Of a stretch of 64,000 nt of DNA, positions 32,701 through 64,000 are shown piece after piece; positions within the stretch are counted from its first letter, which is position 1, and every line of letters begins with the position of its first letter. The translations under genes and the position numbers were made by a program. Source of the DNA: Mobula hypostoma (lineage: Eukaryota). Below the pieces are notes generated by a model. It ran no database searches and was not told the origin of the DNA. It worked only from the letters and a program-made list of their open reading frames with translations. The stretch is from positions 116,252,001 through 116,316,000 of the forward strand of contig NC_086107.1 of the NCBI RefSeq assembly GCF_963921235.1, given 5' to 3'.

Positions 32701-35700
32701 CTTTAGCAGGCGGAGGTCTCCCTTCTTGGGCAGTAGGACCACAACAGCTCTTCGCCATGAGAAGGGCATTTCTCCAGTGGCTAGGCTCTCCCCTAGGGCA
32801 AGGCTGTAATCATCCCCCAGGACATCCCAAAAAGCCTGATAAAACTCAACACTCAGTCCATCCAAACCAGGGGACTTGCCCCTCCGGAGTTGCCGAAGGG
32901 CAGTGGACAGCTCCTCCCGAGTCAGGGGGGCGTCCAGACGCACTGCGTCCTCTGGGCTGACCTTAGGCAAATCCTTCCAGACCTCATTACACGCCTCCGC
33001 ATTTGACGGATCAGGCGAGAATAAGGACCGATAGAATGAACGGACTTCGTTGTTAATTCCATCAGGGTCCGTGATGGAGGAGCCATCGGCAGCCAGCAGC
33101 TCCACTAGCTGCTTCTGAACTCCCCGCCACCTCTCCAACGAGTAGAAGAAGGGTGAGCCACGGTCCAAATCCTGCAGCATTTGGATCCGTGACCTCACGT
33201 ACGCACCTCGGGACTACTGAAGCTGCAGGTTCCTTAGTGCGTCCTTCTTCTCCTGGTATTCCTGCCACAGCTGCTGGTCTCCAGCGGTCGGACCGAGGCG
33301 GGACTCCAGGTCAAGCAACGCTCTCTCAAGCCACTCAACCTCAGAGCCCCGCCTCTTTGTCGACCCCCTAGTGTACTCCCGGCATAAAAACCAGATGTGG
33401 GCTTTGCCCACATCCCACCATAGCCGTAGGGAGCAGAACTCTCTCCGCCTCTCCTTCCAGGAGACCCAGAACGCTCGGAACGAATCCCGGAATCGGCTGT
33501 CCTCCAGCAGCCGGTTGTTAAAATGCCAATACCCGGATCCCACCCGAGGGTGTAGTGGAATAAATTCCATCCACACAAGGTGATGATCCGAGCACGACAC
33601 TGGCCGCATGGAGGACGCCGACACGCGGGAGGCATAGGCCCGAGAGATGTAAATGCGGTCTATCCTGGAACCTCCTTCTCTAGACCTTCTCGAGAAGGCG
33701 CTAGAGTTGGGGTGAAGATTCCGCCAGCTGTCCACCAAGTCAAAGGAGCCGACTAGCTCCTTTAACTTTTTTGCTGATGCTGGGTCACGTTGGAGGCCCG
33801 ATCGGTCCACCGCCTCGAGGGTGCAATTGAAGTCTCCCCCGAGGATGACGCAGTCCCCAGGATCGATGGAGCTCAGCAGGGTGGACAGCTGGCAGAATAG
33901 GCGTGTCTGCATCACACCGCGCCTGGGAGCGTACACATTGATAAAATGCAATGGTATGCCATCCAGGCGCACAACCAGGTGGAGCAGACAGCCGGGCACA
34001 ACGTCCTGGACTCTTTCAATTACTGGCTGGAAGGTCGGGGCCAACAGGATCGCCACCCCGCTAGAAATGGAGCTGAGGTGGCTCATGTAGACCCTGCCCT
34101 GCCACTCCAGGAGCCAAGCAGACTCGTCCCCAGGGATGGTATGGGTTTCCTGCAGGAAACTCACCGTATACTGCCCATCCCTGAGGACTGAGAGATTGTT
34201 ATGCCTGCGAAGAGGACCCCTGCTGCCGTTTACATTGAGACTAGCTATGGTAAGCTTCATGGCGGGAGCACACAAGGTCTCAGCAGCTGTGCCCATTCCG
34301 GTGAGAGCGGAGGCGCCTTCCACCACACTGTCCGGAAAGAAAGCAAGGATACCTTTTGCTTTCCGGGCTCGAGCGGTACCAGCAACACCCTGTGACCCAC
34401 CATCCCCCGTTGGAGCGAGGCTGCTTCTCCCTCTGATGTCCCTTACTAGGTCATCCAGGAAAGATTTTAGTTGCCGTCTGTCGTTCCCCACCACCGCATT
34501 CCTCTTTCCCTTTCCCTTTCGTCTGAGGATGACTCGCAGGGACCTCACCAGCCTCGGCATGCTGGGCCAGCGAAGCGAGGCTAGTTGAGGCCGGTGCTTG
34601 GCACCCTCAGAGGTGAGAATGAAATGCTTAATTTCCTCTACAGGTATCAATGGGGATTTCTCAGGAGGGGGAGGATGTCCATTGTTTCACTATGGAAGGA
34701 GTCCCCCTCCAACCCGTCACTGCAGACAGAATCCCCATCGGCCTCCCCGCATGTTCCAATAGATGGCTGCGCCTGTGACCCACACCGCGCAGCGGGCACC
34801 TCGCTCATACCTGCCCGCTCCACCGTCGCATCAGTCTCATCCACATTTGCGACAGTGGAGGGACAATCCCCAGGGACTCCCTGCAAGTCATTTATTGCTG
34901 GGGTCGACGTGCACAGAATATCGTCCTCCGCAGGGGGCAGGTATAGAGGGGAACCCGGCACCTTTGGTCCAGGGGATTCACAAGCAGTCTGGTGCTGAGA
35001 GTGAGAGAGCTTTGTCTCATCTCCTCTTACACTATTCGGTACACTTACCTACAGAGAGCCGCTGACTTGTAGGTCCTGGGTGGAGGCCTCCAGGGCTGCC
35101 TCATTTGTGCAAACAGGCCTATCACAAGCTTTTTGCACAACCACACCATCTACCCCAGGACTGGTGGCTACATCTGGGGACTCAGGTTTAGAACCAACCC
35201 CTACCCGGATTCCCACCCCTTCCTGGGACTCCCCCGCATCTACATCCGCTGCCCTCTAGCAGGAACGTTCCCTTCTCCTCTTCACGCCGGAGGAGCTCAC
35301 AGGTGCAGGATTCACCGATGGGGCGGTGCTCTCTGTTTCCATCGCCCCGTCTGCTTGCGCACCTCCCCGAGCCCCACGCTCCACTTCAGGCGAAATGGGC
35401 GTGAGCTCTGCGGCCTCAAAGGCTGGCTTCTTACTGTGTTTGGATTTCCCCTTTGCCTTCTTACTCCACACAGACTCCACCCCGTCCCCCACCTGAACCA
35501 CAGGGAGAGGAGCAGGGACCGACCCAACCGTAGGAGTAGGGACAGGGGTAGGGGTAGGGGCAGGGTGAGAGGCTGGGGCAGGATCATGGGCGGGGGCAGG
35601 GTCAGATGCAGCTGGGGCACTGGTGCCCGAAGTGGGCCCCCTCGGGTTCCGGGCGGCAGGACAGTCCCTCCGAAAGTGCCCCACCTCCCTGCACGCATGG

Positions 35701-38700
35701 CACCGTGGGCGCTCGGAGCTCCAGTACACCTGATAATCTACTCCCTCGTGCCAGACAGTAAACCGGCCCTCAACGTTGTCCTCCCTTTCCAGCTGCATGA
35801 ATACCTGACGCCGGAAAGAGATTACGGTGCGGACAGTGCGTCTCTTAAATTTGTGTCGGATGGCAGTGGTCTCCGACCTTACTTGCCCTAAACGGGCCAG
35901 TGGGGGAAGCAAGTCCTCATTTGGAATGAAAGGCTTAACATGCCCAAGCACGATACGTTGCGTGGGGGGCCGTCACCAGCTCCATCGGTAAAAAGATGTT
36001 GTCTACCGTGACTCCCCTGCTTAGGGCCCGGTGAACTAGCTCTTCATTCACCAGATAGAACACCGCCTTTCCGAACTCCTTCTCGGTGGCCAGAATACCA
36101 CCTTTCCCCACAAGGTCCTCCATTGCCTCCGTACACTTTTCTAGTGTCATTCCAGGGCGCAAAATACATTGCACCCCACGTTCCACCTTCACCAACCGAA
36201 ACAAGGCGTTGTCCGAGGCCGGGGAGGCAGCCGCCCGTGCGTAACTCCCCGAAGGCCCGCGACTCCCTGGAGACCGGTCCGGCATGCTGGCGCTCTTTCC
36301 AGTCCGAGAATCCTACAGCGGTGTCGGTTAGAAGTCCTGGAGCGAGTCGAATAACTGGCCGGGAAAGTTTGCAGTCGACAGTTCCTTGCTGGCTCGGCCC
36401 CAGGAAAGGCTCCGTTGAACTTTCAGAAACCCAGGCCGGGAGAGGTCGAAACGTCCTTCCAGATGCTCCGGCTCCGACACCGGACGAAAATCAGGAAAAC
36501 AATGGAGGAGGAACGTTGCCCCGATGTCAATGGGGGGAAAACGACGGCGTTTGCCTCCGGTTTTGGAGCGAACCGGCTTACTGGCGAGTTGCCAGCGGCC
36601 GCAGCTGGGAGCTACGCAGTTAGCAGCCGCCAACAAACCCAGCCCAAACCAGCAGTAAAACTCCACACCGAGCTTCCACACCAACACCGTCACTCACTCA
36701 GTTGTCCAAGAGACTTTTAGAGCCACCTCCAAAGTATTCCACGAACTTTATCCAGTACTTTTCCTTCGATTTCTCCCAGCTCAGCACAGCTCCTCTCTGT
36801 GTCTGACCCCGGGAGTGTGTGATGGGACAGTGTGGAGGGAGATTCACTCTGTGTCTGACCCCGGGAGTGTGTGATGAGACGGTACGGAGGGTGCTGGGGA
36901 TGCAGTTGTTGACACTGTGTGACAGGAGTGTCTGACAGCAGTACCCCTTCCCCAAACAGGTGCGTTACCCAGACAGGATCACACTGATCCGGGGTAACCA
37001 CGAGAGTCGACAGATCACCCAGGTGTACGGCTTCTACGACGAGTGTCTGCGCAAGTATGGCTCCGTGACCGTCTGGCGATACTGTACTGAAATCTTCGAC
37101 TATCTCAGTCTGTCAGCCATCATTGACGGCAAGGTGCGTGGGAGAGGGAGGGAGAGGGCAGGAGCTCATGGATCCGCGTTAAACTGTGGCATCTCTCTGC
37201 TTTGTGTTTACGTGGGAAGGAGAGGTGGGTCAGAGCGGTGGAGATTAGGTGACGGGTTTGTTGTAGGGGTACAGGGTGTGTTGAAGTCGGGGGTACGGGG
37301 TGTAGATCGGGCAGTGGGTGGGGGTACGGGGTGTAGATGGGGCAGTGGGTGGGGGGGTGTTGAAGTCGGGGGTACGGGGTGTAGATGGGGCAGTGGGTGG
37401 GGGTACGGGGTGTAGATGGGGCAGTGGGTGGGGGGGTGTTGAAGTCGGGGGTACGGGGTGTAGATGGGGCAGTGGGTGGGGGTACGGGGTGTTGAAGTCG
37501 GGGGGGGTACGGGGTGTAGATGGGGCAGTGGGTGGGGGTACAGGGTGTTGAAGTCGGGGGTACGGGGTGTAGATCGGGCAGTGGGTGGGGGGAGTGTTGA
37601 AGTCGGGGGTACGGGGTGTAGATGGGGCAGTGGGTGGGGGTACGGGGTGTTGAAGTCGGGGGTACGGGGTGTAGATGGGGCAGTGGGTGGGGGTACGGGG
37701 TGTTGAAGTCGGGGGGGTGTAGATCGGGCAGTGGGTGGGGGTACGGGGTGTAGATGGGGCAGTGGGTGGGGGGTGTTGAAGTCGGGGGTACGGGGTGTAG
37801 ATGGGGCAGTGGGTGGGGTACGGGGTGTAGATGGGGCAGTGGGTGGGGGGGTGTTGAAGTCGGGGGTACGGGGTGTAGATGGGGCAGTGGGTGGGGGGGT
37901 GTTGAAGTCGGGGGTACGGGGTGTAGATGGGGCAGTGGGTGGGGGTACGGGGTGTTGAAGTCGGGGGTACGGGGTGTAGATCGGGCAGTGGGTGGGGGGG
38001 TGTTGAAGTCGGGGGTACGGGGTGTAGATGGGGCAGTGGGTGGGGGTACGGGGTGTTGAAGTCGGGGGTACGGGGTGTAGATGGGGCAGTGGGTGGGGGT
38101 ACAGGGTGTTGAAGTTGGGGGTACGGGGTGTAGATCGGGCAGTGGGTGGGGGGAGTGTTGAAGTCGGGGGTACGGGGTGTAGATGGGGCAGTGGGTGGGG
38201 GTACGGGGTGTTGAAGTCGGGGGTACGGGGTGTAGATGGGGCAGTGGGTGGGGGTACGGGGTGTTGAAGTCGGGGGGGTGTAGATCGGGCAGTGGGTGGG
38301 GGTACGGGGTGTAGATGGGGCAGTGGGTGGGGGGTGTTGAAGTCGGGGGTACGGGGTGTAGATGGGGCAGTGGGTGGGGTACGGGGTGTAGATGGGGCAG
38401 TGGGTGGGGGGGTGTTGAAGTCGGGGGTACGGGGTGTAGATGGGGCAGTGGGTGGGGGGTGTTGAAGTCGGGGGTACGGGGTGTAGATGGGGCAGTGGGT
38501 GGGGGGGTGTTGAAGTCGGGGGTACGGGGTGTAGATGGGGCAGTGGGTGGGGGTACGGGGTGTTGAAGTCGGGGGTACGGGGTGTAGATCGGGCAGTGGG
38601 TGGGGGGGTGTTGAAGTCGGGGGTACGGGGTGTAGATGGGGCAGTGGGTGGGGGGGTGTTGAAGTCGGGGGTACGGGGTGTAGATGGGGCAGTGGGTGGG

Positions 38701-40256: not shown

Positions 40257-40262
40257 AATAAA
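40257..40262 (+). terminator. PPP4C polyadenylation signal AATAAA
   Basis: AATAAA ~475 nt after the stop codon, followed by T/GT-rich sequence. Confidence 0.75.
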
Positions 40263-47550: not shown

Positions 47551-48796
47551 TAGAAACATAGAAACATAGAAAATAGGTGCAGGAGTAGGCCATTCGGCCC
47601 TTCGAGCCTGCACCGCCATTTATTATGATCATGGCTGATCATCCAACTCAGAACCCAGCCTTCCCTCCATACCCCCTGACCCCTGTAGCCACAAGGGCCA
47701 TATCTAACTTCCTTTTAAACATAGCTAATGAACTGGCCTCAACAGTTTGCTGTGGCAGAGAATTCCACAGATTCACCACTCTCTGTGTGAAGAAGTTTTT
47801 CCTAACCTCGGTCCTAAAAGGCTTCCCCTCTATCCTCAAACTGTGACCCCTCGTTCTAGACCTCCCCAACATCGGGAACAATCTTCCTGCATCTAGCCTG
47901 TCCAATCCCTTTAGGATCTTATACGTTTCAATCAGATCCCCCCTCAATCTTCTAAATTCCAACGAGTACAAGCCCAGTTCATCCAGTCTTTCTTCATATG
48001 AAAGACCTGCCATCCCAGGAATCAATCTGGTGAACCTTCTTTGTACTCCCTCTATGGCAAAGATGTCTTTCCTCAGATTAGGGGACCAAAACTGCACACA
48101 ATACTCCAGGTGTGGTCTCACCAAGGCCTTGTACAACTGCAGTAGTACCTCCCTGCTCCTGTACTCGAATCCTCTCGCTATAAATGCCAGCATACCGTTC
48201 GCCTTTTTCACCGCCTGCTGTACCTGCATGCCCACTTTCAATGACTGGTGTATAATGACACCCAGGTCTCGTTGCACCTCCCCTTTTCCTAATCGGCCAC
48301 CATTCAGATAATAATCTGTTTTCCTATTTTTGCCACCAAAGTGGATAACTTCACATTTATCCACATTAAATTGCATCTGCCATGAGTTTGCCCACTCACC
48401 CAACCTATCCAAGTCACCCTGCATCCTCTTAGCATCCTCCTCACTGCTAACACTGCCACCCAGCTTCGTGTCATCCGCAAACTTGGAGATGCTGCATTTA
48501 ATTCCCTCATCCAAGTCATTAATATATATTGTAAACAACTGGGGTCCCAGCACTGAGCCTTGCGGTACCCCACTAGTCACCGCCTGCCATTCTGAAAAGG
48601 TCCCGTTTATTCCCACTCTTTGCTTCCTGTCTGCTAACCAATTCTCCACCCACACCAATACCTTACCCCCAATACCGTGTGCTTTAAGTTTGCACACTAA
48701 TCTCCTATGTGGGACCTTGTCAAAAGCCTTTTGAAAATCCAAATATACCACATCCACTGGTTCTCCCCTATCCACTCTACTAGTTACATCCTCAAA
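47551..48796 (-). mobile_element. Young 5'-truncated CR1 (left arm of inverted pair)
   Basis: Uninterrupted 375-aa RT C-terminal ORF at 47648-48775; tagaaaca repeat tail at 47551. Confidence 0.93.
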
Positions 48797-48983
48797 TATG
48801 TATCATATTTAAAAAATGAAATTGAAGCAATAGTGATCAGCATGGACGCTTGATTTGGTTAATTGGAACTTTCTTTACAGAGTTTTACATAGATTTGGTC
48901 TACATGACACAATTATTAAAACTATACAGGCACTGTATGACAATCCTACTGCTAGGATTAAAATCAATGGATATTTATCTAAT

Positions 48984-50731
48984 GGCAGACCAATTGAATA
49001 ATTACTTTGGTTCTGTCTTCACTAAGGAGGACATAAATAATCTTCCAGAAATAGTAAGGGACAGAGGGTCCAGTGAGATGGAGGAACTGAGCGAAATACA
49101 TGTTAGTAGGGAAGTGGTGTTAGGTAAATTGAAGGGATTGAAGGCAGATAAATCCCCAGGGCCAGATGGTCTGCATCCCAGAGTGCTTAAGGAAGTGGCC
49201 CAAGAAATAGTGGATGCATTAGTGATAATTTTTCAAAACTCGTTAGATTCTGGACTAGTTCCTGAGGATTGGAGGGTGGCTAATGTAACCCCACTTTTTA
49301 AAAAAGGAGGGAGAGAGAAACCGGGGAATTATAGGCCGGTTAGCCTAACGTCGGTGGTGGGGAAACTGCTGGAGTCAGTTATCAAGGATGTGATAACAGC
49401 ACATTTGGAAAGCGGTGAAATGATCGGACAAAGTCAGCATGGATTTGTGAAAGGAAAATCATGTCTGACGAATCTCATAGAATTTTTTGAGGATGTAACT
49501 AGTAGAGTGGATAGGGGAGAACCAGTGGATGTGGTATATTTGGATTTTCAAAAGGCTTTTGACAAGGTCCCACACAGGAGATTAGTGTGCAAACTTAAAG
49601 CACACGGTATTGGGGGTATGGTATTGGTGTGGGTGGAGAATTGGTTAGCAGACAGGAAGCAAAGAGTGGGAATAAACGGGACCTTTTCAGAATGGCAGGC
49701 AGTGACTAGTGGGGTACCGCAAGGCTCAGTGCTGGGACCCCAGTTGTTTACAATATATATTAATGACTTGGATGAGGGAATTAAATGCAGCATCTCCAAG
49801 TTTGCGGATGACACGAAGCTGGGTGGCAGTGTTAGCAGTGAGGAGGATGCTAAGAGGATGCAGGGTGACTTGGATAGGTTGGGTGAGTGGGCAAACTCAT
49901 GGCAGATGCAATTTAATGTGGATAAATGTGAAGTTATCCACTTTGGTGGCAAAAATAGGAAAACAGATTATTATCTGAATGGTGGCCGATTAGGAAAAGG
50001 GGAGGTGCAACGAGACCTGGGTGTCATTATACACCAGTCATTGAAAGTGGGCATGCAGGTACAGCAGGCGGTGAAAAAGGCGAACGGTATGCTGGCATTT
50101 ATAGCGAGAGGATTCGAGTACAGGAGCAGGGAGGTACTACTGCAGTTGTACAAGGCCTTGGTGAGACCACACCTGGAGTATTGTGTGCAGTTTTGGTCCC
50201 CTAATCTGAGGAAAGACATCTTTGCCATAGAGGGAGTACAAAGAAGGTTCACCAGATTGATTCCTGGGATGGCAGGTCTTTCATATGAAGAAAGACTGGA
50301 TGAACTGGGCTTGTACTCGTTGGAATTTAGAAGATTGAGGGGGGATCTGATTGAAACGTATAAGATCCTAAAGGGATTGGACAGGCTAGATGCAGGAAGA
50401 TTGTTCCCGATGTTGGGGAGGTCTAGAACGAGGGGTCACAGTTTGAGGATAGAGGGGAAGCCTTTTAGGACCGAGGTTAGGAAAAACTTCTTCACACAGA
50501 GAGTGGTGAATCTGTGGAATTCTCTGCCACAGCAAACTGTTGAGGCCAGTTCATTAGCTATGTTTAAAAGGAAGTTAGATATGGCCCTTGTGGCTACAGG
50601 GGTCAGGGGGTATGGAGGGAAGGCTGGGTTCTGAGTTGGATGATCAGCCATGATCATAATAAATGGCGGTGCAGGCTCGAAGGGCCGAATGGCCTACTCC
50701 TGCACCTATTTTCTATGTTTCTATGTTTCTA
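48984..50731 (+). mobile_element. Young 5'-truncated CR1 (contains right arm of inverted pair)
   Basis: Uninterrupted RT ORF to 50634; tail ttctatgtttctatgtttcta; tctaat duplicated at 48978-48983 and 50728-50733. Confidence 0.93.
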
Positions 50732-52249
50732 ATAGTTTTACCCTAGAAAGGGGCACGAGACAGGGTTGTGCATGGTCACCGCTACTCTTCACATTATATC
50801 TGGAATCATTAGCTCAATACATCAGACAAAATGAAGGTATCAGGGGAATTACCATTAAGGGACAGAGCATTAATTGGCCTGTTACGTGGATGACATTTTG
50901 ATCTATCTAGAACAACCAACATACTCTTTACCTAAATTGATGCAATCCTTTGAACAATATGGCCAATTATCAGGATACAGGATCAACATAGATAAAACCC
51001 AACTACTTTCATATAACTATAGCCCACCAAGAGAAATTGAAAGTAGATATCCTTGGGCATGGCAAACAAGAGTCTGTCAAATATTTGGGCATCATTAATT
51101 ATTCTCACAAGTCAATGAATATGTTGTAAAACAAGATCACTCCCTACTCTGTATGTAGTTTTCTTCTTTCGATTGTTCTTTCTTTCCTCTCCTTTCTATA
51201 TGTGTATACTTCAGATAAATATTATGTGGAGATTTGTGACAAATATGATTATATGATATATATGTACAGTATCTGAAATACATCTTATGGAAAGTTTTGT
51301 TTGATGATGAACTTCAATAAAAAATAAATGACAAAAGAAAATGGCAAATGAAATACAAAATTGAAAAAAAATGTGCAACTATTTTCTAAAGGGGAGAAAA
51401 TGCAAAAGTCTGAGATGCAAATGGAATTGGGGAGTCCTTGTGCAGAACTTGCAGGCTGAGTCGGTGGTGAGGAAGGCAAATGCAATGTTGGCATTCATTT
51501 GAAGAGGTCTAGAATACAAGAGCAGGGATGTGATACTGAGTATTTATGAGACATTGGTGAGGCCTCACCTCGAGTATTGTGAACAGTTTTGGGCTCCTCA
51601 TCTTGGAAAAGATGTGCTGGTATTGGAGAGGGTCCAGCGGAGGTTCTCAAGGATGATTCCAGGAATTAAAAGGTTATCATACGAGGAACGTTTGATAGAT
51701 CTGGGTCTGTAACCGTTGGAATTCAGAAGGATGAGGGGGGATCTCATTGAAACCTTTCGAATGTTGAAAGGCCTGGACAGAGAAGAGGTGGAAAAGATGT
51801 TTCCCATGGTGGGGGAGTCTAGGACAAGAGGGCACAGCCTCAGGATAAAGGGGCGTCCATTTAAAACAGAGATGCGGAGAAGGTTCTTTAGCCAGAGGGG
51901 GCGAATTTGTGGAATTTCTTGCCATAGATAGCTGTGGGTGTATTTAAGGCAGAGATTGATGGGTTCTCGATTGGGCACGGCATCAATGGTTACGGGGAGT
52001 GGGGCTGAGGAGGGGTAGAGCGATCAGCCAGATGGTCTAATTCTGCTCCTGTGTCTATGGTTTTATTTATTTTTCCCTCTCAGCTCTATTCTCCCGCCTT
52101 AGTACAGCCACAATGTTTCACCGAACGAATTAATTTAGTAATCCACTGGCCACCTAATCTCCTCTGCCTACTCCATCTCTGCACCAGCCCCGTCTCTGCC
52201 CGCCCGGTGTCACAACGGTTCGCAGTTCCCCAGCGGCGGCCTGACTGGA

Positions 52250-52693
52250 CCTGACATGATTCCCCGGCGCTCGGCCGCTGCCCGGACCGATGAAGGCGAA
52301 CTCGCCCTGCGAACGACCCTCATCAGCCCGCCATCCGAACCGGTCCCGCCCCCGCCCCCGCCGTCTCCACCCAATTGGCCAGTCCCGCAGAGTGACGGCT
52401 TCCTCTCGCCGTCTATTGGCTCTTTCCGTCACTTTAACCCTATCCTACCATTGGTACGTTCATCCCGCTCACTCCAATTGGCTGAAGCTTCTGCATTCCG
52501 ATTGGTCTAATCGGCCATGACAGCCAAACGATAGATTCAATTGGACGCCCTACTTCCGCTGTCTCCAATGCGATTGGCTGCAGTTCGGGCCGTTCCCCGA
52601 TGGGCGGGAGCAGTTGCCCCGGTGATGGTGTCAGAGTTGACGGTTTTCCTTCTCTCCCCCTCGGGAGGTGCCGCATCGCAGACGAGAGAGATG
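52250..52693 (+). promoter_or_regulatory. CpG-island promoter of the third gene (GC boxes, CCAAT cluster, X-box-like motif)
   Basis: cccgcccccgcccccgcc at ~52345-52362; at least 8 CCAAT/ATTGG motifs at 52371-52577; GTTGCCCCGGTGAT at 52613-52626; followed by a G-rich tract like the first introns of the other genes. Confidence 0.75.
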
Positions 52694-53530
52694 GTGGGGA
52701 GAGGGTGGGGAGAGGGAGAGAGAGAGGGAGAGGGAGAGGGAGAGGGAGGGAGGGAGAGGGGGATGGGGAGGGGGATGGGGAGGGGGATGGGGAGGGGGAG
52801 GGGGATGGGGAGGGGGAGGGGGTGAGGGTGAGGGAGGGGAGAGGGTGAGGGTGAGGGTGAGGGTGAGGGAGGGGAGAGGGTGAGGGTGAGGGTGAGGGAG
52901 GGGAGAGGGTGAGGGAGGGGAGAGGGTGAGGGAGGGGAGAGGGTGGGGAGAGGGAGGGGAGAGGGAGAGGAGGGGGAGGAGGAGGGGGAGGAGGAGGGAG
53001 AGGGGGAGAGGGAGAGGAGGGGGAGAGTGAGAGGAGGGGGAGGGGAGAGGGTGAGGAGGGGGAGAGGGTGGGGAGGGGAGGGGGAGAGGGTGGGGAGGGG
53101 GAGGGGGAGGGGAGGGGGAGAGGGTGGGGAGGGGGAGAGGGAGAGGGTGGGGAGGGGGAGAGGGAGGGGGAGAGGGTGGGGAGGGAGGGAGAGGGTGGGG
53201 AGGGGGGAGAGGGAGGGGGAGAGGGTGAGGGGGGAGAGGGGGAGGGGGAGGGAGGGTGGGAGAGGGGGAGGGAGAGGGAGGGTGGGAGGGGGAGGGGAGA
53301 GGGTGGGGGGGAGGGGGAGGGGAGAGGGTGGGGGGAGGGAGAAGGAGAAGAGAGGGTGGAGAAGGAGGGGTGAGGGTGGGGAGGGAGAAGGAGGGGAGAG
53401 GGTGGGGAGGGAGAAGGAGGGAGAGGGTGGGGAGGGAAAAGGAGGGGAGAGGGCGGGGAGGGAGAAGGAGGGGAGAGGGTGGGGAGGGAGAATGAGGGGA
53501 GAGAGTGGGGAGGGGGAAGTGGGAGTAGGG
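52694..53530. repeat. G/A-rich low-complexity tract (ggggagagggt variants)
   Basis: Read directly; explains the long Pro-rich minus-strand ORF. Confidence 0.9.
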
Positions 53531-54113
53531 AATGAAGGGGGTAGTGAGGGAAAGGGAGTGGGGAGGGATTGTGTGGGCTAGTGGAGTAGAGGGAGAGGTG
53601 AGGAAGGGGAAAGGAATGCAGGGGAGAGGATGGGTGATCTGGAGGGGGATAGGGTGGTGGGGAGAGGGTGAGATTAGGTGTGATGGTGAGGGGCAGAGGA
53701 GGAGGTGGTGGGGGGGAAGGGGAAATGAGGGTAGTAGGGAGGAGGAAGGGGAGATTTGGTGTGATCGGGAAAGGAGGGATGATGGTGAGGGGTAAAGAAG
53801 GGGTGTTGGGGAGAGGAATGGGTAGTAGAGGAGGGCTGCTGGAGGAGTGGGAGGGGACTGTTGGGGGTAGTGGGATTTGGTGTGTTGGGGAGAGGGGGGA
53901 TGATGGTGGAGGGGGAGAGGAAGGGGGTAATTGTGGGCTGTTCAGGACAGAGGGAGGGGACAGTTGGTGGTGGGGAGTGGAGGGCTGGTGGTGGAGGGAA
54001 GACGCAGGAGACAGGCGCGAGAAGAAGAGGGAGATGTTACTGGTACCTGGGAACATTTCTCTCCCTCCCTGCCACAGAGACCCTGCCGATCGATGAAGGC
54101 CTGACCCCCTGTG

Positions 54114-57100
54114 ATGAGCAGGGCCACCCACCCTTCAATGGCGGTGAGGATTGTAACTCCCCTTCCCTCATTTCTTTCCTTCCTTCAGGCTAGGGTACCA
54201 TTGAAAAGCTTGTTGTGGACACTGTTCATACAGATCATATCGTTACACAGTGCATTCAGGTAGAACAAGGTCAAACAACAACAGAACATAGAATAAATTG
54301 TAACAGCTATAGAGAAACTACAGGCAAACAGTAAGATGCGACTGTCACAACGAGGTAGATTGGGAGATGAAGGGTACATCTTATCAAACTACAGAATCAT
54401 TTAGTCTTGTAGCCATCCTTGTGCCTAGTGGATGGATGTGCATAAGACATAGGGGCAGAATTTGGCCATTTGGTCCATTGAGTCTGCTCCACTATTTAAC
54501 CACGGCTGATCCATTTCCCTCTCAGCCCCAATCTCCTGCCTGCTCCCTGTATCCCTTCATGCCCTGACTAATCAATAATCTATCAACCTCTGCCTTAAAT
54601 ATACCCAAAGACCTGGCCTCCACAGCCGCCTGTGGCAACAAATTCCACAGATTCACCACTCTCTGGATAGAGAAATTCCTCCTCCTCTCCATTCTAAATG
54701 GGCATCTTTCTATTTTAAAGCTGTGTCCACTGGTTCTAGGCTCCCCCACCATTGGAAGCATCCTCTCCACATCCACTCTGTCTTTCAACATTTGATGGGT
54801 TTCAATCAGATTTCCCCCTAATTTTTCTGAATTCCAGTCAGTAGATGCCCAGAGCCATCATGTTCCTCATATGACATGCCTTTCAATCCCTGAATAATTG
54901 TCAGGAACCTCCTATGTCAACACATCCTTTCTTAGATAAGGGCCCAAAATTGCTCACAAACTCCAGAGAGGCCTCACTAGTTCTTTATAAAGCTTCAACA
55001 TTACATCCTTGCTTTTATATTCCAGTCCTCTTGAAATGAATGCTAACATTGCATTTGCCTTCCTCACCACCAACTCAACCTGCAAATGAACCTTTAGGGA
55101 ATCCTGCACAAGGTCTCCCAAGTCCATTTGCACCTCAGCTTCTTGAATTTACTCTCCATTTAGAAAATGGTCTACACTTTTATTTCTTCCGCCAAAGTGC
55201 ACGACCATTCACTTCCAGACACTGTATTCCATCTGCCACTCCTTTGCCTATTCTCCCAACCTGTAGCCTCTCTACTTCTGAGAAACTACCTGGCCCTCCA
55301 CCTGTCTTTGTATCGTACACAAACTCGGCCACAAAGCCATCAATTCTATCATCCAAATTATTGATATATAATGTAAAAGGAAGTGGACCCATCACACAGC
55401 CCTGTGGAACACCACTAATTAAAGTCAAAGTACCAGAAAGGCTTCCGTTCTTCACACATTCTGCCCCCTGCCAATCAGCCAATGCTCCATCCATAAGCAG
55501 CCTCATGCGTGGCCAGAAAATCCAACTACACAACATCCTTCGATTTTCCTTTGTCTGTCCTGCTGGTTTCAAGGGGAGTAGAATATGAGAGCAGGGAGGT
55601 AATGCTGAGGCTTTGTAAGACACTAGTCAAGAGTACCATAGAACCATAGAAACTACAGCACAGAAACAGGCCCTTTGGCCCTTCTTGGCTGTGCTGAACC
55701 ATTTTCTGCCTAGTCCCACTGACCTGCACACGGACCATATCCCTCCATACACCTCCCATCCATGTATCTGTCCAATTTATTCTTAAATGTTAAAAAAGAA
55801 CCCGCATTTACCACCTCGTCTGGCAGCTCATTCCATACTCCCACCACTCTCTGTGTGAAGAAGCCCCCCCCCAATGTTCTCTTTAAACTTTCCCCCCCTC
55901 ACCCTTAACCCATGTCCTCTGGTTTTTTTCTCCCCTAGCCTCAGCGGAAAAAGCCTGCTTGCATTCACTCTATCTATACCCATCATAATTTTATATACCT
56001 CTATCAAATCTCCCCTCATTCTTCTACACTCCAGGGAATAAAGTCCTAACCTATTCAACCTTTCTCTGTAACTGAGTTTCTCAAGTCCTGGCAACATACT
56101 TGTAAACCTTCTCTGCACTCTTTCAACCTTATTTATATCCTTCCTGCAATTTGGTGACCAAAACTGAACACAATACTCCAGATTCAGCCTCACCAATGCC
56201 TTATACAACCTCATCATAACATTCTAGCTCTTATACTCAATACTTCGATTAATAAAGACCAATGTACCAAAAGCTCTCTTTACGACCCTATCTACCTGTG
56301 ACGACACTTTTAGGGAATTTTGTATCTGTATTCCCAGATCCCTCTGTTCCACTGCACTCCTCAGTGCCTTACCATTAACCCTGTATGTTCTACCTTGGTT
56401 TGTCCTTCCAACGTGCAATACCTCACACTTGTCTGTAGTAAACTCCATCTGCCATTTTTCAGCCCATTTTTCCAGCTGGTCCAAGTCCCTCTGCAGGCTC
56501 TGAAAACCTTCCTCACTGTCTACTACACCTCCAATCTTTGTATCATCAGCAAACTTGCTGATCCAATTTACCACATTATTATCCAGATCATTGATATAGA
56601 TGACAAATAACATTGGACCCAGCACTGATCCCTATGGCACACCACTAGTCACAGGCCTCCACTCAGAGAAGCAATTCTCTACCACCACTCTCTGGCTTCT
56701 TCCATTGAGCCAATGTCTAATCCAATTTACCACCTCTCCATGTATACCTAGCGACTGAATTTTCCTAACTAACCTCCCATGCGGGACCTTGTCAAAGGCC
56801 TTACTGAAGTCCATGTAGACAATATCCACTGCCTTCCCTTCATCCACTTTCCTGGTAACCTCCTCGAAAAACTCCAACAGATTGGTCAGACATGACCTAC
56901 CACGCACAAAGCCATGTTGACTCTCCCTAATAAGCCCCTGTCTATCCAAATGCTTGTAGATTCTGTGTCTTAGTACTCCCTCCAATAACTTACCTACTAC
57001 TGACGTTAAACTCACCGGCCTATAATTTCCCGGATTACTTTTCGATCGTTTTTTAAACAACGGAACAACATGAGCCACTCTCCAATCCTCCGGCACTTCA

Positions 57101-60100
57101 CCCGTAGACTGCAACATTTTAAATATTTCTGCCATGGCCCCGGCAATTTCAACACTAGTCTCCTTCAAGGTCCGAGGGAACACTCTGTCAGGTCCCGGGG
57201 ATTTATCCACTTTAATTTTCCTCAAGACAGCAAGCACCTCCTCCTTTTCAATCTGTATTGGAGCATTGTCAACAGTTTCGGGGGCCATATATTAGAAAGG
57301 ATGTGTTGGCATTGGAAGGAGTCCAGAGGAGGTTTACGTGGATGATTCCAGGAAGTAAAGGATTAACATATGAGGAGCATTTGCACCGTTGCGCCTGTAC
57401 TCACTGAAATTTAGAGGAATGTGGGGGGTCTCATTGAAACCTACCGAATGTTGAAAAGACTTGGTCGGGTAGGTGTGGAGAGGATGTACCCTGTGGTGGG
57501 GCTATCCAGAACTAGAGGGCACAGCCTCAAAATTGAGGGGTGACCTTTTAGAACAGAAGTAAGGATGAATTATTTTCTCCAGAGGGTAGTGAATTTGTGG
57601 AATGCTCTGCCACAGACTGCAGTGGAGGCCAAGCTGTGGGTATAGTTAAAGGATGGTCAGGATATGGCAAGAAGACAGGTGTATGGGGTTGAGTGGGATC
57701 TGGGATCAGCCATGATGGAATGGCAGAGCATACTCGATGGGCTGAATGGCCTCACTGTGCTCCTATGTCTTAAGGTCTTCTTCTTTCTTCAAAGAATTCC
57801 AACAGATTTAGGAGGCAAATTTTCCCCTTAAGGAAACCATGCTGACCGGCCTATTTTTTCATCTGCCTCCAAGTACCCCAAAACCACATCCTTGGTTATA
57901 AAGGGATCTGGTCCAGTCACCCCAGGTTAATGATGGTATGGACTGGTTCCTGAGTAGGTCATGGATTGGGCAGGTTATTGTTGGTGTGGATTGGTTAACC
58001 TGCCTGCCTTGTTTAATGGGGCCCCTGTTCTCTCTGCCCGCAGCCCCTGACGATGAGAAGCCCAGTGCTGGTGACCGTTGCCCCCCCACAACTGCTGATT
58101 CCCCTCCCCGCCATCATTATTCTGGTGGTCGGCGTCTACCTGGTGCTGGTAGTGATGGCAGTCATCGTTCGTCAGTGGCTGCTGGTGAGGGGGAGAGGAG
58201 GGGGGAACGAGGGATGGTTTGGAATCGTTCGTCAGTGGCTGCTGGTGAGGGGGAGAGGAGGGGGGAACGAGGGATGGTTTGGAATCGTTCGTCAGTGGCT
58301 GCTGGTGAGGGGGGAACGAGGGATGGTTTGGAATCGTTCGTCAGTGGCTGCTGGTGAGGGGGGAACGAGGGATGGTTTGGAATTGTTTGTCAGTGGCTGC
58401 TGGTGAGGGGGGAACGAGGGATGGTTTGGAATCGTTCGTCAGTGGCTGCTGGTGAGGGGGGAACGAGGGATGGTTTGGAACCATTCGTCAGTGGCTGCTG
58501 GTGAGGGGGAGAGGAGGGGGGAACGAGAGACGGTTTGGAATCGTTCATCAGTGGCTGCTGGTGAGGGGGGAACGAGGGATGGTTTGGAGAGGGCTGAGGG
58601 TTGAGGGAGAGGGAAGAGTGGTGGCCAAGGGAGAGGGAAGAGGGATATTGCGGGGAGGTGGTGGAGAGGAGGAGGGAGTACAAGGAGGAGCAGGGTAGGG
58701 AGGGAGAGGAGGAGGGGGGCATGAGAATGGGTTAGGGGAGGGAAGTTGGGAAGAGCAGAAAAGGAGGATGGGAGGAGGGAAGGGAGAGGTGCTGGATGGG
58801 TGGAGCAGGGCAATGAGGGAGAGGGAAGAGAAGAAAGGGAGAGAATTGAGGGGTGGTGGGATAGGAGGGGGGAGGGTTGGAGGTGGGAGAGGAGGGGTGG
58901 TGGGGTGGTGGGATAGGAGGGGTGGAGATGGGTTAGGAATAATTGAGGGGTTGGGGTGGGGGTTTATAAGGTACCTGGTGCCATATTGACACTTCCTCCT
59001 CTCTGTAGGCACAAGGGGTGTGTGGAGAGAGCAACTGTGGGGGTCTGGGTGAGGACAGTCCGTGTGGCCAGTGTCTGCTGACTCTGGCCCAGAGTTGTGA
59101 CTGTCGCCTGCCCACCCTCACCAAGTGTATGGACCATTGCTGTCCTCGCTCGCTGGTGAGTGTCCATTACATCCTTCCCCAGTTCCTGTCTCCCATCTCC
59201 CACCGTCTGCCCCTTTCTCCCCATGTCATGTCTCACCCCACTAACATGAGAACATAAGAAATAGGAGCAGGAGTCGGCCATCTGGCCCGTCGAGCCTGCT
59301 CCGCCATTCAATAAGATTGTGGCTGATCTGACCACGGACTCATCTCCACCTGCCTGCCTTTTCCACATAACCCTTAATTCCCCCCCTACTATGCAAAAAT
59401 GTTAAATATATTTACTGAGGTAGCCTCCACTGCTTCATTGGGCAGAGAATTCCACAGACTCACCACCCTCTGGGAAAAGCAGTTCCTTCCCGTCTCCATT
59501 ATAAATCTACTCCCCTGAATCTTGAGCCTTTCATAATTTCATTATTCTATAAGATCTCCTCTTAGTCTTCTGAATTCCAGAGAGTACAGTCCCAGGCGAC
59601 TCAATCTCTCCTCATAGTCTAACCCCTTCATCTCTGCAATCAATCTGCACCACCTCCAAACCCAGTATATCCTTCCTCAAGTAAGGAGACCAGAACTGCA
59701 CGCAGTACTCCAGGTGCGGAATCTTGTACAGTTGTAGCATAACCTCCCTGCTCTTAAATTCAACCCCTCTCGCAATGAAGGCCAACATTCCATTTGCCTT
59801 CTCGATAGCCTCCTGCACTTGCAAACCAACCTTTTGTGATTCATGCACAAGCACTCCTAGTCCCTCTGCATAGCAGCATGCTGCAATCTTTTACCATTTA
59901 AATAATAATCTGCTCTTTCATTTTTTCCTTCCAAAGTGGATGACCTCACATTTACCAACGTTGTACTCCGTCTGCCAGACCCTTGCCCACTCACTTATCT
60001 ATTATCTCTCTGCTGACTCTCTGTATCTTCTGCACAATTTGCTTTTCCAAATTTAGTATCATCAGCAAACTTAGATAAACTACACTCGGCCCCCCTTCCA

Positions 60101-63100
60101 GATCATGAATGTATATTGTGAACAGTTGTGGGCCCAGCACACCACTCACCACTGATTGCCAACCAGAGTAACACCCATGTATCCCAACTCTCTGCTTTCT
60201 GTTACTTAACCAATCCTCTATCCACGCTAATGCATCACCCCCAACTCTATGCATCCTTATCTTATGGATAAGTCTTTTATGTGGCACCTTATCAAATGCC
60301 TTCTGGAAATCCAAGAAATCCATGCTGCATCTGCCTGATGGATCCATTTCTTTCCAGAAGCCTCGCTATTTCTTCTTTAATGATAGCTTCAAGCATTTTC
60401 CCAACTGCAAATGTTAAAATAACTGTCCTTTCGTTACCTGCCTTTTGCCTACATCCTTTGTTGAACAGTGGCGTGACATTCACTGTCTTCTAATCCTCCG
60501 GAACCTGCCCAGAATCCAGAGAATTTTAGTCAATCATCACCAAAGCCTCTACTATAACTTCTGCCATTTCTTTCAGTGCCCTGGGATGCATTCCATCAGG
60601 ACCAGGGGACTTACCTGTCTTCAGGCCCACAAGTTTGCTCAGCGCTACCTCTTTAGTGATAGCAATTGATCGAGGTCATCATCTCCCATCGCATCCATAA
60701 CATCTCTCTTTGGCACGTTAGATGTGTCCTCCACCATGAAGACAGGCACAAAAAAGTAATTCAAAGCCAATATCAATTCTCCAAGGGACCTATATTCACT
60801 TTAGCCACCCTTAGATAAAACAGATAAAAAATGTTTATTATCTGTTTTTATATTTTGTGCTAGTTTATTTTCATAATATAGCTTCCCTTTCTTTCTTGCT
60901 TGCTTAGTGTTTCTTTGTTGCTTTTTAAAGTTTTCCCAAACTTCCAGTTTCCCATTACTCTTGGTGACTTTGTATGCACGAGCTTTTAGTTTGATCCCTT
61001 CTTTTATTTCCTTGGATGTCCACAAGGCTGGCTCTCCCCACCCTTACTGTCCTTGCTTTTAACTGGAATATACCTTTGTTGAGCATGTGAAAAATCCCTT
61101 TGAAAAGTCTTCCACTGTTCCTCAACCATCCCACCATATAGTCTGTATTCCCGGTCTACACTAGCCAAATCCTCCTTCATCCCATTGTTTAGGCATAACA
61201 CACTGGTTTTAGATTGCACCCTCCATGTGTGAGAAATTCAGTCATACTGTGATCACTCTTTCCAAGAGGATCCCTAACTGCAAGATCACTAATTTTACCT
61301 GTCTCATTACACAGGACCAGATCTAAGATAACACGTTCCCTTGTAGGTTCAGTAACATGCTGTTCAAGAAAGCCATCATGGATGCATACTATGAAGTCCT
61401 CCTCAGGACTGCCTCGACCAGCTTGGTTCACCCAATCTATGAGCAAGTTAAAGTCCCCCACGATAACTGTTGTTCCATTCTGTCATGCCTCAGATATTTC
61501 TCTGTTTATTGCCTGTACCACTGTAATGTTGTTATTCGGTGGCTGATAGACAACGCCCGCCAGTGATTTTTTTCCCTTTACTGTTCCTAATCTCTACCCA
61601 AATAGATTCAATGTTCTGCTCCTTGGATCTGATATCTTCTCTCACCATCACCCTGATCTCATCTTTAATTAAGAGCGCTACCCCACCTCCCTTACCTTCC
61701 TGCCTATCCTTCCGTATTACCAGATATCCTTGGATATTTAATTCCCAATCCTTTCCACCCTGCAACCACGTCTCTGTAAGAGCCACTAAATCATACCTCT
61801 TTGTACTGATTTGTGCCACAAGTTCACTGACCTTGTTTCGAATACTACGGGCATTCAGATAAAGGGCCCTTACACTCACTGTGCTTTTAAATTCTTGTAA
61901 TGTTTTGCGCTTGACCTTTCTTCACTCCATTCTTAACTTTTTTTTTTAATCTTTTGCCTTTTTCTTTATCTTTATTCACACTTTTCTTTTTTACTTTATC
62001 CACACTTCTCCAATCTGTTGACCCTCCCCCAATTATTCAGTTTAATGCCCTATCCACAGCCCTAGTTAGCGATTCGCTGGGATCCAGGCCCCATCCCGGT
62101 TCAGGTGGAGCCTGCCCCATTGGTACAGCTTCCTCCTTCCCCAATACTGGTGCCAATTTCCCATGAATTCAAACCCACTTTTCCCACACCGATCCCTAAG
62201 CCACACATTTAATTCTCTAATCTTTTTGACCCTAAACCAATTTGCATGTGGCTCAGGTAGTAATCCAGAGATTGTCACCATTTTGGTTTTGCTTTTTAGT
62301 TTAGTCCCTAGCTGCTCCAATTCCCTCAGCAGAACCTCTTTCCTCGTTCTACCTATGTCATTGGTACCCACATGGACCATGACAACTGGATCTTTCCCCT
62401 CCCACTGCAAATTCCTCTGCAGGTCACGTAAGATGTCCCGAATCCGGACATCAGGCAGGCAACACAGCCTTTGGCACGCTGTATCCTCGTGACAGAGAAC
62501 TCTGTCTACTCCCCTGACTATACTATCCCCAATTACCACTAAATTTCTCTTCTCTCCCGCCTCAGGAATGGCTCCCTGAACCACAGTGCCACAGTTAGGC
62601 TGCTCATCCTTCCTACAGCCCCACCCTCATCCACACAGGGAGCAAGAATCTCAGACCTGCTGGACAAGCTCAAGGGCTGAGACTCCTCTTGGATCCCACT
62701 CCCCACCCCACTCGCAGTCACACCCTCTAGTCCCTGACCACAGACTGAATTTGAAGCAGCTGATCTAACAGGTGTGACTACCTCCTGAAACAGAGAATCC
62801 AGGTAACTCTCCCCCTCCCTGATGTGCTGCAGTGTTTGAAGCTCAGATTCCAGGTCATCAACTTTGAGTCTGAGTTCCTCGAGCCGCCAACACTTGCTGC
62901 AGATGTGGTCACCAGGAACCACAGTGGGGTCCACCAGCTCCCACATGATGCAGCTACAGCACATCACCTGATCCTACATCATCCCTACTTTAGTTAATTA
63001 GCTGTAATTTAGTGACTTTTTATTCAAGCCTTACCTGTGCCTCCTCACTGAAGCACTTCAGCCAAAGCCTCGAGTTCCCACTCCGACACTGGTCCATTCA

Positions 63101-64000
63101 CACAATGGCCGCTCTGCTTTACTTTTATTTGCTCCTCTAATGAATCACGAATCGATTGGTCTGCTGCTAATGCGCTGATCCCCATGAAACGCTCCATTTT
63201 TAAACACTCCTCCCCAACCTGCGCAAAGCTCTCTCTGTGAATTGATTGGCCCACCACTATTGCACCAAGCCCGCAAAATGCTCCCTTTTCAAACTCTTCT
63301 TCTTGACCTGTGCGAAGCGCTCCGTCTCTCTCTCTTTGCGAATTGATTGGTCCATCGCTATTGCCATCTCTCCACCTTCACCCAGTGTTGTCCTTGCCCA
63401 CACTCCCACAATATCTCCATGTCTCGTGATTGCCTGCCCCTTTCTTGAGGTGTTTTGTCTCTCTCGTCTCACCAATTCCCGTCTCCCCATCTCCAATCTC
63501 CCACCTTCACCCATTTCCCATCTCCCACCAGTGAATCTGTACCACTCCCCCCCCATCTCCTGTCTCCCCACTGTCTGTCCCTTTATCCCGTGCCCTGTCT
63601 CTTCCTCATCACCCCCCACCCCCATCTACTGTCTTCACCCATCTGTCTCCTGTCTCGCTTGTCTCACCCTGTCACATCCCATCTCTCGTCTTTACTTGTC
63701 TCCTCTTACCCCGACTCCTGTCTCCCCCTCATCTCCCTGCCCTCCCCCGTATCCCCACCTGACCCCATTTCCCGCGTGTCCTGTCTCTTCCTTGTTTCAC
63801 CGTCTCTGTCATCTTCTGTCTCCGTCTCCACTTCATCACTCCCATCGTCTCCTTGTCTCCCCAGCAGCACTCTGCAGATTTCCTTACTGTAACTTTTCAT
63901 TCTCTGCCTCCCTCCCCAGGACTGTGGACGGGGCAACTGCCCTTGCTGCCCCCTCTGTGACTGTGCCTGTGCCTTCCAGCTGCCCGACTGTGAGACCACC
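54114..64000 (+). CDS. Uncharacterised single-pass membrane protein with Cys-rich tail (partial, 3' end outside the window)
   Basis: Exons 54078-54143 (in-frame ATG at 54114 after an in-frame TGA), 58044-58184 (alternative ATG at 58053), 59009-59155 and 63920->64000. All have polypyrimidine-AG acceptors, the first three have GTGAG donors, and the joins are phase 0. Product: [133 protein letters not shown]... Confidence 0.78.
54440..57895 (-). mobile_element. Nest of decayed CR1 fragments (outer minus copy, plus-strand fragment ~55560-55636 + 57260-57780)
   Basis: Minus-strand [11 protein letters not shown] and [15 protein letters not shown]; plus-strand 3' UTR at ~57700-57775. Confidence 0.7.
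55637..57259 (-). mobile_element. 5'-truncated CR1, innermost of the nest
   Basis: [31 protein letters not shown] with a few stops; ccatagaa repeat tail at 55637. Confidence 0.85.
58164..58588 (+). repeat. 60/49-bp tandem array containing the exon end and splice donor (8 copies)
   Basis: Unit atcgttcgtcagtggctgctg|GTGAGG...aacgagggatggtttgga; GT at 58185, 58245, 58305, 58354, 58403, 58452, 58501 and 58561. Confidence 0.92.
59244..63360 (-). mobile_element. Near full-length decayed CR1 (5' UTR, ORF1 zinc-finger/coiled-coil/SGNH, ORF2 APE-RT)
   Basis: CCSCIMWEL...[59 protein letters not shown]; tail agaacataagaaataggagc at ~59250. Confidence 0.88.

Follow-up and report, generated by a model that had tools for sequence, protein, structure and literature searches.

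The 64,000-nucleotide stretch of Mobula hypostoma DNA analyzed here (the window) holds, all on the + strand, aldolase from position 2125, PPP4C at 11755-39781, and the gene studied here from about 52140. A sequence-only reading had proposed for the latter a four-exon gene spliced in phase 0, and this was borne out, as the spliced frame reproduces 133 of 133 residues of RefSeq XP_062919498.1 (Mobula hypostoma, si:ch211-198p11.6, 143 aa); the last 10 codons of the coding sequence (CDS) fall outside the 64-kb window. Each of the three introns (54143^58044, 58184^59009, and 59155^63920) runs from GT to AG in phase 0, with junctions exactly where they had been placed. Likewise, the 17 Cys in 76 residues (exons 3 and 4, with CxC, CC, and CxxC motifs) and the hydrophobic stretch with a terminal RQW (exon 2) were found as described. 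The proposed start at 52250 did not hold: this position is non-coding and belongs to a CpG island in which CCAAT boxes cluster. The gene had also been called unannotated, which the existing RefSeq model contradicts. The features are as follows:

52140..52660, no strand assigned: CpG island and CCAAT-box cluster, candidate promoter and putative non-coding first exon (from base composition)
54078..54143, + strand: first coding exon, with a candidate acceptor at 54077 and a GT donor; CDS start at ATG 54114 (RefSeq model, 10 codons) or ATG 54138 (2 codons)
54093..54104, + strand: upstream open reading frame in the CDS frame, ATG 54093 and a stop after 3 codons
58044..58184, + strand: coding exon 2, spanning residues 11-57, with a Pro/Ser/Thr-rich stalk, a transmembrane helix, and juxtamembrane Arg53
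about 58104-58184, + strand: part of exon 2 coding for the transmembrane helix (AlphaFold helix 31-58)
58165..58588, + strand: tandem repeat of 49-60-bp units, in which the end of exon 2 and its GT donor are copied 8 times
59009..59155, + strand: coding exon 3, residues 58-106; 9 Cys, with amphipathic helices predicted at about 76-86 and 94-101
63920..64000, + strand: coding exon 4, of whose 37 codons the first 27 lie in the window and the rest beyond its end; 8 Cys and an alternating CxCxC stretch

Of the two possible start codons, ATG 54138 agrees with the beginning of the amphibian and coelacanth proteins. Copies 2 and 3 of the tandem repeat keep the frame and would add 20 and 40 aa, respectively. 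The upstream island has a CpG observed/expected ratio of 0.94 and a GC content of 0.61, and its 10 CCAAT boxes at 52371-52577 form the densest 300-bp CCAAT window within the 64 kb (background of 2.3 per kb). Sequencing data were considered as well. Exon 3 was contained, whole or in part, in 16 run rows, with no RNA among those listed, which is neutral evidence. The read comparison covered contigs of 4 of the 16 runs over 54000-64000 at a likeness of 85 and was dominated by LINE copies; among the 15 joints listed from it (1087 further joints lay beyond these), none was an exon junction. In 4 of 4 runs, depth was seen in the bins of exons 2 and 4, against 0-3.2 in the adjoining unique intron bins (contigs, run type guessed), which was not counted as evidence, and one contig was continuous and unspliced across 54114-54464.

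A homologue search with the spliced peptide, suggested earlier as a check, returned 25 of 51 candidates at E<=0.001. The majority of these (16 of 25) are named mammalian proteins, some as 'LOC112694756 homolog', with E values as low as 4e-25, and the macaque protein shares 47% identity with the ray protein over 132 aa (pairwise E of 1e-32). By this comparison, the ray gene is the orthologue of human LOC112694756/ENSG00000285043, which disposes of the suggestion that the gene was lost in mammals. For the human gene, Mudge et al. (2019, PMC6886504) report a CDS of 139 aa, uncharacterised and located in the ALDOA 5' UTR, with 4 coding exons, a last PhyloCSF region of 111 nt, and a PhyloCSF rank of 226, and the supplement row on it gives no peptide support. 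The four coding exons and the 37-codon last exon of the RefSeq ray model match this human pattern (111 nt). The same source lists mouse ENSMUSG00000114515 and zebrafish si:ch211-198p11.6/ENSDARG00000097765 as further orthologues, the latter in line with the earlier suggestion of uncharacterised fish relatives; the human gene is described as always co-transcribed with ALDOA, while the zebrafish gene adjoins aldoaa yet is separate (PMC6886504). The AC093512.2 named in one further paper may be a different gene label.

The human gene lies inside the 16p11.2 BP4-BP5 copy number variant (CNV) and is listed there in clinical papers; the proposed membership of a 16p11.2-syntenic block was correct. Linkage to aldolase and PPP4C is common to ray and human, but the order differs: in human the gene precedes ALDOA, whereas the ray gene is located about 47 kb downstream of aldolase, after PPP4C and behind the CpG/CCAAT island. 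Unlike in the human arrangement, the ray gene has its own candidate promoter. The sequence-only reading had recognised no mammalian counterpart after PPP4C; it missed the mammalian gene because the human copy is found upstream of ALDOA instead.

The family reaches further than the conservation among vertebrates reported by Mudge et al. (PMC6886504), as it extends to protostomes, with members in lamprey, tunicate, hemichordate, priapulid, chelicerates (spiders included), and molluscs. Among the 19 of 44 matches that were looked up (7 of the 19 nameless), none of the named members came from a cnidarian, sponge, insect, nematode, or bird, or from outside the animals. In principle, unique islands could have been joined into this frame by chance, or the frame could belong to a fish-lineage gene lost in mammals. 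The missing junction-spanning record among the joints listed above speaks for chance; however, RefSeq models exist in three rays, mammals possess orthologues, and the human CDS has been ranked by PhyloCSF. Since 25 of 51 candidates match and conservation spans all three exon junctions, the ray frame is not a chance one, and both ideas were rejected as having practically no probability left. Taken jointly, gene structure, annotation, orthology, and bilaterian spread are virtually certain.

Searches for known families and folds were largely empty. Pfam gave nothing meaningful among 35 members at E<=0.1, which includes zinc-binding families and metallothionein (the latter also absent in 8 of 8 members at E<=10), and neither a keratin-associated family nor the I-mfa (MDFI) domain was found in these 35 members, the latter being absent also from a scallop protein automatically named MDFIC-like. 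A PDB profile search returned nothing at E<=1. Foldseek yielded no rows in PDB, where mainly residues 12-68 were probed, and none at E<=0.001 in viral structures, and VIA-align, covering mainly the same residues and barely the tail, reached a best Z of 3.4 with single-helix matches only. In the ESM Atlas, only family-like clusters were found at >=0.9, with no usable named match for the tail. These null results do not establish a new fold.

The ray protein was modeled by AlphaFold with a helix at residues 31-58 (block pLDDT of 95-98 across residues 31-50), whereas the tail helices reached a pLDDT of only about 45-54 without a confident globular tail, and a second run with 48 sequences brought no improvement. 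Among 40 family sequences, the C-terminal flank of the helix is more basic in 31, equal in 7, and reversed in 2, the ray protein alone having a net charge of 0 on both flanks. Glycosylation sequons are enriched on the N-terminal side (14 vs. 4.5 expected) but not on the C-terminal side (23 vs. 24.9 expected); 7 of the 12 sequon-bearing sequences belong to one spider-containing clade. Because of the flank charges and the sequon pattern, the tail is likely cytosolic, as had been proposed. In 39 of 40 members, no Cys precedes the helix, and juxtamembrane Cys columns occur at 55 and 62, where the ray protein has Trp and Cys, respectively. With high confidence, we therefore predict a single-pass protein of N-out/C-in type III topology without a signal peptide.

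The tail holds 25 Cys columns, whose replacements are informative. F/W/Y account for 93 of 234 replacements, or 36% weighted, compared to 8.6% implied by BLOSUM62, a generic control, and to 6.5% in the tail background. A further 76 replacements are aliphatic and 3 are Asp, and none of the 234 is His. After collapsing clades, 54 of 160 replacement events were aromatic, with p-values that are nominal since the events are not fully independent; among the one-base neighbours of Cys codons, F/Y/W numbered 58 and S/G/R 22. Moreover, the Cys face of segment 76-89 lies 38 degrees from the hydrophobic and 173 degrees from the polar face, and that of segment 93-102 lies 7 and 133 degrees away, respectively. 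The replacement pattern and the one-faced Cys in the helices favor multiple S-acylation over metallothionein-like metal binding, which we consider the more probable use of these residues. With slightly more assurance, we propose multiple S-acylation for the Cys on one face of the two short amphipathic helices and the alternating CxCxC strand. For influenza M2, a comparable exchange has been described: at the acylated Cys50 on its amphiphilic helix, the substitutes are mostly Phe or Tyr (PMC8227752). PMC4488726 offered no support for a Cys-to-Phe exchange. Burial of the Cys within a small hydrophobic core would also be compatible with their exchange for aromatic residues.

The best explanation is, with a probability of roughly 0.6, a single-pass protein with a multiply S-acylated cytosolic tail. 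The Cys-rich tail would be acylated at many sites and lie flat against the inner membrane leaflet, and the protein would likely assist another membrane protein as its auxiliary subunit or lipid-anchored adaptor. For the conserved C-terminal PxCxxxNCxCFEI motif, a role as partner-binding surface is conceivable, though we propose it tentatively. Conservation is uneven: it reaches 90% or more in 7 of the 25 Cys columns, C102 and C137 are shared without exception by all 40 sequences, and D99, P92, and N134 are highly conserved as well. Such columns, including C102/C137, could be metal ligands. In a hybrid of both ideas, most Cys would be lipidated or membrane-facing, and a few near-invariant ones (62, 102, 135, 137, and neighbours) would hold a single structural zinc around which the tail folds, as Cys do in LITAF domains. 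The conserved non-Cys residues suggest a defined local fold, but the lack of His in all Cys columns, of any Pfam zinc-binding family among 35 members at E<=0.1, and of a confident globular tail in AlphaFold makes the hybrid unlikely.

Still less probable is a membrane-tethered chelator of the metallothionein type that would buffer multiple ions of Zn, Cu, or Cd close to a membrane. The Cys density and motifs and the probably cytosol-facing tail would suit it, yet the Cys columns exchange with F/L/I/Y/W and never with His, the Cys number over the aligned tail ranges from 14 to 33, and no metallothionein matched in Pfam. The earlier label 'metallothionein-like' is apt for composition alone, and the substitution pattern speaks against general metal ligation; of the pair 'metal binding or palmitoylation', the second part was a good guess. 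An unlikely reading, ranking between the hybrid and the chelator, places the tail in the lumen or extracellular space with disulfide bonds, or makes the protein a disulfide-cross-linked structural sperm protein. Automatic names of some orthologues ('keratin-associated protein', 'sperm mitochondrial-associated cysteine-rich protein') point that way; the positive-inside and sequon patterns speak against it, no more than 21 of 40 sequences have an even number of tail Cys, no pair of columns is lost strictly together (best phi of 0.71 with 5 single losses), and no keratin-associated Pfam family matched. Compared with these alternatives, the S-acylated single-pass protein remains our preferred reading.

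The gene is already annotated and not new; yet its function appears untouched. Among the 9 papers found outside subscription journals to name LOC112694756, none on function was recognised; a 2024 gene-by-gene review of 27 16p11.2 genes and a 2012 zebrafish 16p11.2 screen contain 0 mentions of the gene and of its zebrafish name, respectively. A little-studied gene sits within the recurrent autism-linked 16p11.2 BP4-BP5 deletion, and its retention in animals as distant as rays, spiders, and molluscs implies that it does something old and basic. As the mammalian gene shares a transcript with ALDOA according to PMC6886504, expression values of the two may be confounded. The gene is a separate unit in zebrafish, and probably also in this ray, which would permit clean knock-out and dosage tests. 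In a speculative and rather improbable extension, the 16p11.2 CNV would contain a 28th protein-coding gene that has been overlooked, encoding a bilaterian-wide, heavily palmitoylated auxiliary subunit of a membrane channel or receptor (neuronal or sperm) that acts as MDFIC does on PIEZO without being related to it; its dosage would add to 16p11.2 phenotypes, with part of the mammalian RNA and genetic signal credited to ALDOA.

Regarding known systems, the ray protein is similar over its full length to the LOC112694756/si:ch211-198p11.6 family, with four coding exons and an equal last-exon length. Metallothioneins are soluble, have no transmembrane helix, and are not known to exchange Cys for aromatics; they and the ray protein are both dense in Cys and carry CxC, CC, and CxxC motifs, but the ray protein differs by helix 31-58, aromatic or aliphatic residues at Cys columns, variable Cys number, and the missing Pfam match. 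Keratin-associated and sperm mitochondrial Cys-rich proteins consist of repetitive Cys-Pro units without a transmembrane helix, whereas the ray family shows a non-repetitive conserved alignment, one hydrophobic helix, and no Pfam row. The type III transmembrane adaptors LAT, PAG, and LIME have a single helix behind a short ectodomain, carry juxtamembrane Cys, and lack a signal peptide. The ray protein is predicted to share the short N-terminal ectodomain, single helix, cytosolic tail, and juxtamembrane Cys, but tyrosine signalling motifs are absent, with no Tyr after residue 53. These adaptors and S-acylated viral proteins (influenza M2, NB) carry 1-3 Cys compared to about 20, and no sequence homology was found; separately, an ESM feature match at 0.75 to glycoprotein NB serves as no more than a lead. 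The ray protein has its own transmembrane helix, whereas MDFIC is not known to have one. For MDFI/MDFIC/MDFIC2, regulation of PIEZO via a palmitoylated Cys-rich C terminus is described in PMC13080014. A Cys-rich C terminus is common to them and the ray protein, although no tested member matched the MDFI family in Pfam or by sequence in PDB. MDFI/MDFIC may thus be a system that works alike, of which the ray protein is not a member.

The gene is real, annotated and ancient. Its spliced product within the window is identical to residues 1-133 of the 143-residue RefSeq protein XP_062919498.1 of Mobula hypostoma (P0001; cluster mates M. birostris and Hypanus sabinus), named 'uncharacterized protein si:ch211-198p11.6', and the gene, which the sequence-only reading had called unannotated, is therefore already annotated. 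With exon 3 alone as query, two proteins were matched among two candidates, both from Mobula. All three junctions proposed previously (54143^58044, 58184^59009 and 59155^63920) proved exact, with GT...AG ends, a pyrimidine tract before the AG and phase 0 for each intron. From ATG 54114 to the window edge, the frame comprises 133 open codons over four spliced exons, and it encodes the single hydrophobic helix and Cys-rich tail as described (17 Cys in the final 76 residues). An alternative start, ATG 54138, agrees with the N-terminal beginnings of the amphibian and coelacanth proteins, and an upstream ORF of 3 codons starts at ATG 54093. At 58165-58588 the exon-2/intron-2 boundary has expanded into a minisatellite that holds 8 copies of the splice donor; its donors 58244 and 58304, if used, would add 20 or 40 in-frame residues directly after the helix.

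Two features of the surroundings of the gene:

52140-52660, CpG island with CCAAT cluster (CpG o/e 0.94; 10 CCAAT boxes in about 210 bp)
2125 to about 6760, + strand, aldolase in the place syntenic to ALDOA (an A/C mosaic when scored on PDB sequences)

Position 52250, formerly taken as the gene start, had to be abandoned, as it falls into the non-coding CpG/CCAAT region. The ten boxes (52371-52577) occur in both orientations and are denser than anywhere else in the window. Promoters with multiple CCAAT boxes are known from cell-cycle and testis genes. The region 52140-52660 is the putative promoter of the ray gene. The end of PPP4C lies at 39781 and an AATAAA follows at 40257, so read-through from PPP4C is unnecessary. 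Within a PPP4C intron, a long and fairly intact non-LTR retrotransposon (about 30600-36300, - strand), presumably Tx1/L1-like, carries a zinc-knuckle ORF and endonuclease/reverse-transcriptase frames. Several CR1/L2-like LINE copies (about 24300-29700 and 47600-50650) are near-identical and have long open reverse-transcriptase frames of up to 619 aa, which suggests recent activity.

When 1.84 billion representatives were searched exhaustively with phmmer, 44 matched at E<=0.001; 19 of these were looked up, and 12 were named members: frog, lamprey, smelt, tunicate and hemichordate among the deuterostomes, and additionally priapulid, horseshoe crab, spider, pearl oyster, scallop, abalone and argonaut. 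Searching with a profile (41 of 4672 candidates) brought in coelacanth and additional spiders. As members were found in both groups, the family is older than the protostome-deuterostome split, and this bilaterian spread exceeds the range of 'vertebrates' stated in 2019 (PMC6886504). No Pfam family fitted the members, and a PDB sequence search gave no match. Where members had been named automatically, for example as keratin-associated protein or MDFIC-like, Cys composition is the most likely reason. A divergent clade of the family (ENA records P0048, P0099, P0100 and P0101) has fewer Cys (14-20), with the tail end still conserved.

The suggested loss in mammals was refuted by the homology search with P0001, in which 25 of 51 candidates passed E<=0.001. 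Sixteen were named mammalian proteins with 39-48% identity, several bearing the name 'LOC112694756 homolog'; the macaque protein (P0104) shares 47% pairwise identity across 132 aa. Two clinical papers put LOC112694756 within the 16p11.2 BP4-BP5 interval, with TLCD3B and ALDOA on either side (PMC11354020, PMC11781945). In Mudge et al. (2019, PMC6886504) it appears as ENSG00000285043, a still uncharacterised CDS of 139 aa and four exons within the ALDOA 5' UTR, with a PhyloCSF rank of 226. Human, and probably mouse, transcribe it together with ALDOA, while the zebrafish orthologue is adjacent to aldolase but a separate unit. Their table gives expression in cerebral cortex and brain and no peptide support, whereas a figure legend names testis and cancer cell lines. 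By eye, about 5 of 139 positions differ between the ENSG00000285043 sequence and P0104. In a table of PMC8848773, LOC112694756 is counted with the highly expressed genes in a carcinoma cell line, a level that may stem from ALDOA reads misassigned via shared exons. LOC112694756 does not occur in a 2024 review covering 27 16p11.2 genes (PMC11211608), nor the zebrafish name in a 2012 zebrafish screen (PMC3484866), and no functional work was found in the open-access literature.

With regard to synteny, the link to aldolase and PPP4C is kept, but the order is not that of human: the ray + strand reads aldolase, PPP4C, gene under study (2125-64000), a permutation of the human LOC112694756, ALDOA, PPP4C. 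Local transposition, or tandem duplication with reciprocal loss, could account for this, and a second aldolase past the window end is possible. Aldolase C is the best match of exon 2421-2633 (95 vs 83 bits) and aldolase A that of exon 5141-5338 (111 vs 100 bits), and another exon gives a near tie with B and C ahead (107 vs 105 bits). The gene itself is already known; what remains of interest is an uncharacterised coding gene within a major neurodevelopmental CNV, and sequence evidence that yields a testable biochemical model.

Topology and Cys patterns were analyzed in 40 full-length, diverse proteins chosen from roughly 120, after exclusion of fragments, aberrant isoforms and near-duplicates. 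The post-helix flank was more basic than the pre-helix flank in 31 of 40; the two were equal in 7, and the order was reversed in 2. N-terminal sequons exceeded expectation by shuffling (14 vs 4.5; 7 of 12 carriers belong to one clade), C-terminal sequons were at chance level (23 vs 24.9), and 39 of 40 lacked pre-helix Cys. Taken together, these patterns suggest a type III protein whose Cys-rich tail would face the cytosol, as proposed earlier for the tail, although the ray protein alone has neutral flanks. AlphaFold was highly confident of the helix (31-58), and in both runs it added two short helices, at about 76-86 and 94-101, at low confidence. Both segments carry Cys on the same face as hydrophobic residues, and Cys alternate at residues 119-126.

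In general, metal-ligand Cys are near-invariant or exchanged for His/Asp, disulfide partners disappear as pairs and leave an even number, and bulky hydrophobic residues can stand in for acylated Cys. Over 25 Cys columns, the 234 replacements included 93 aromatic and 76 aliphatic residues, 3 Asp and no His, which argues against a metallothionein-like metal-binding tail, the least probable of the graded readings of the tail. A disulfide-bonded or structural tail is a little less improbable; an even tail Cys count in only 21 of 40 proteins and the lack of any strictly co-lost column pair among them argue against it. Cys conservation held for seven columns (>=90%, two invariant); these columns would suit an acylated tail with one structural zinc, unlikely overall yet ahead of both. 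The weighted aromatic share was 36% vs 8.6% implied by BLOSUM62, the comparison used here in place of a control family, as the test was run on the studied family alone. Aromatic residues made up 54 of 160 clade-collapsed events, and of the residues that a single base change in a Cys codon can give, F/Y/W outnumbered S/G/R (58 vs 22), which is evidence against simple mutational drift. A buried hydrophobic core could yield the same Cys-to-hydrophobic pattern. For acylated Cys50 of influenza M2, Phe or Tyr are reported as predominant substitutes (PMC8227752).

We favor an acylated tail, with a probability of roughly 0.6. The short stalk would lie outside or in the lumen after insertion, DHHC enzymes would acylate many tail Cys, and the tail would then lie along the inner leaflet and offer its conserved C-terminal motif to a partner, this putative adaptor step being the weakest part of the mechanism. 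The closest functional parallel is offered by MDFI/MDFIC/MDFIC2, which act on PIEZO through a palmitoylated, Cys-rich C terminus (PMC13080014), although Pfam gave no match that would make the protein a member of their family.
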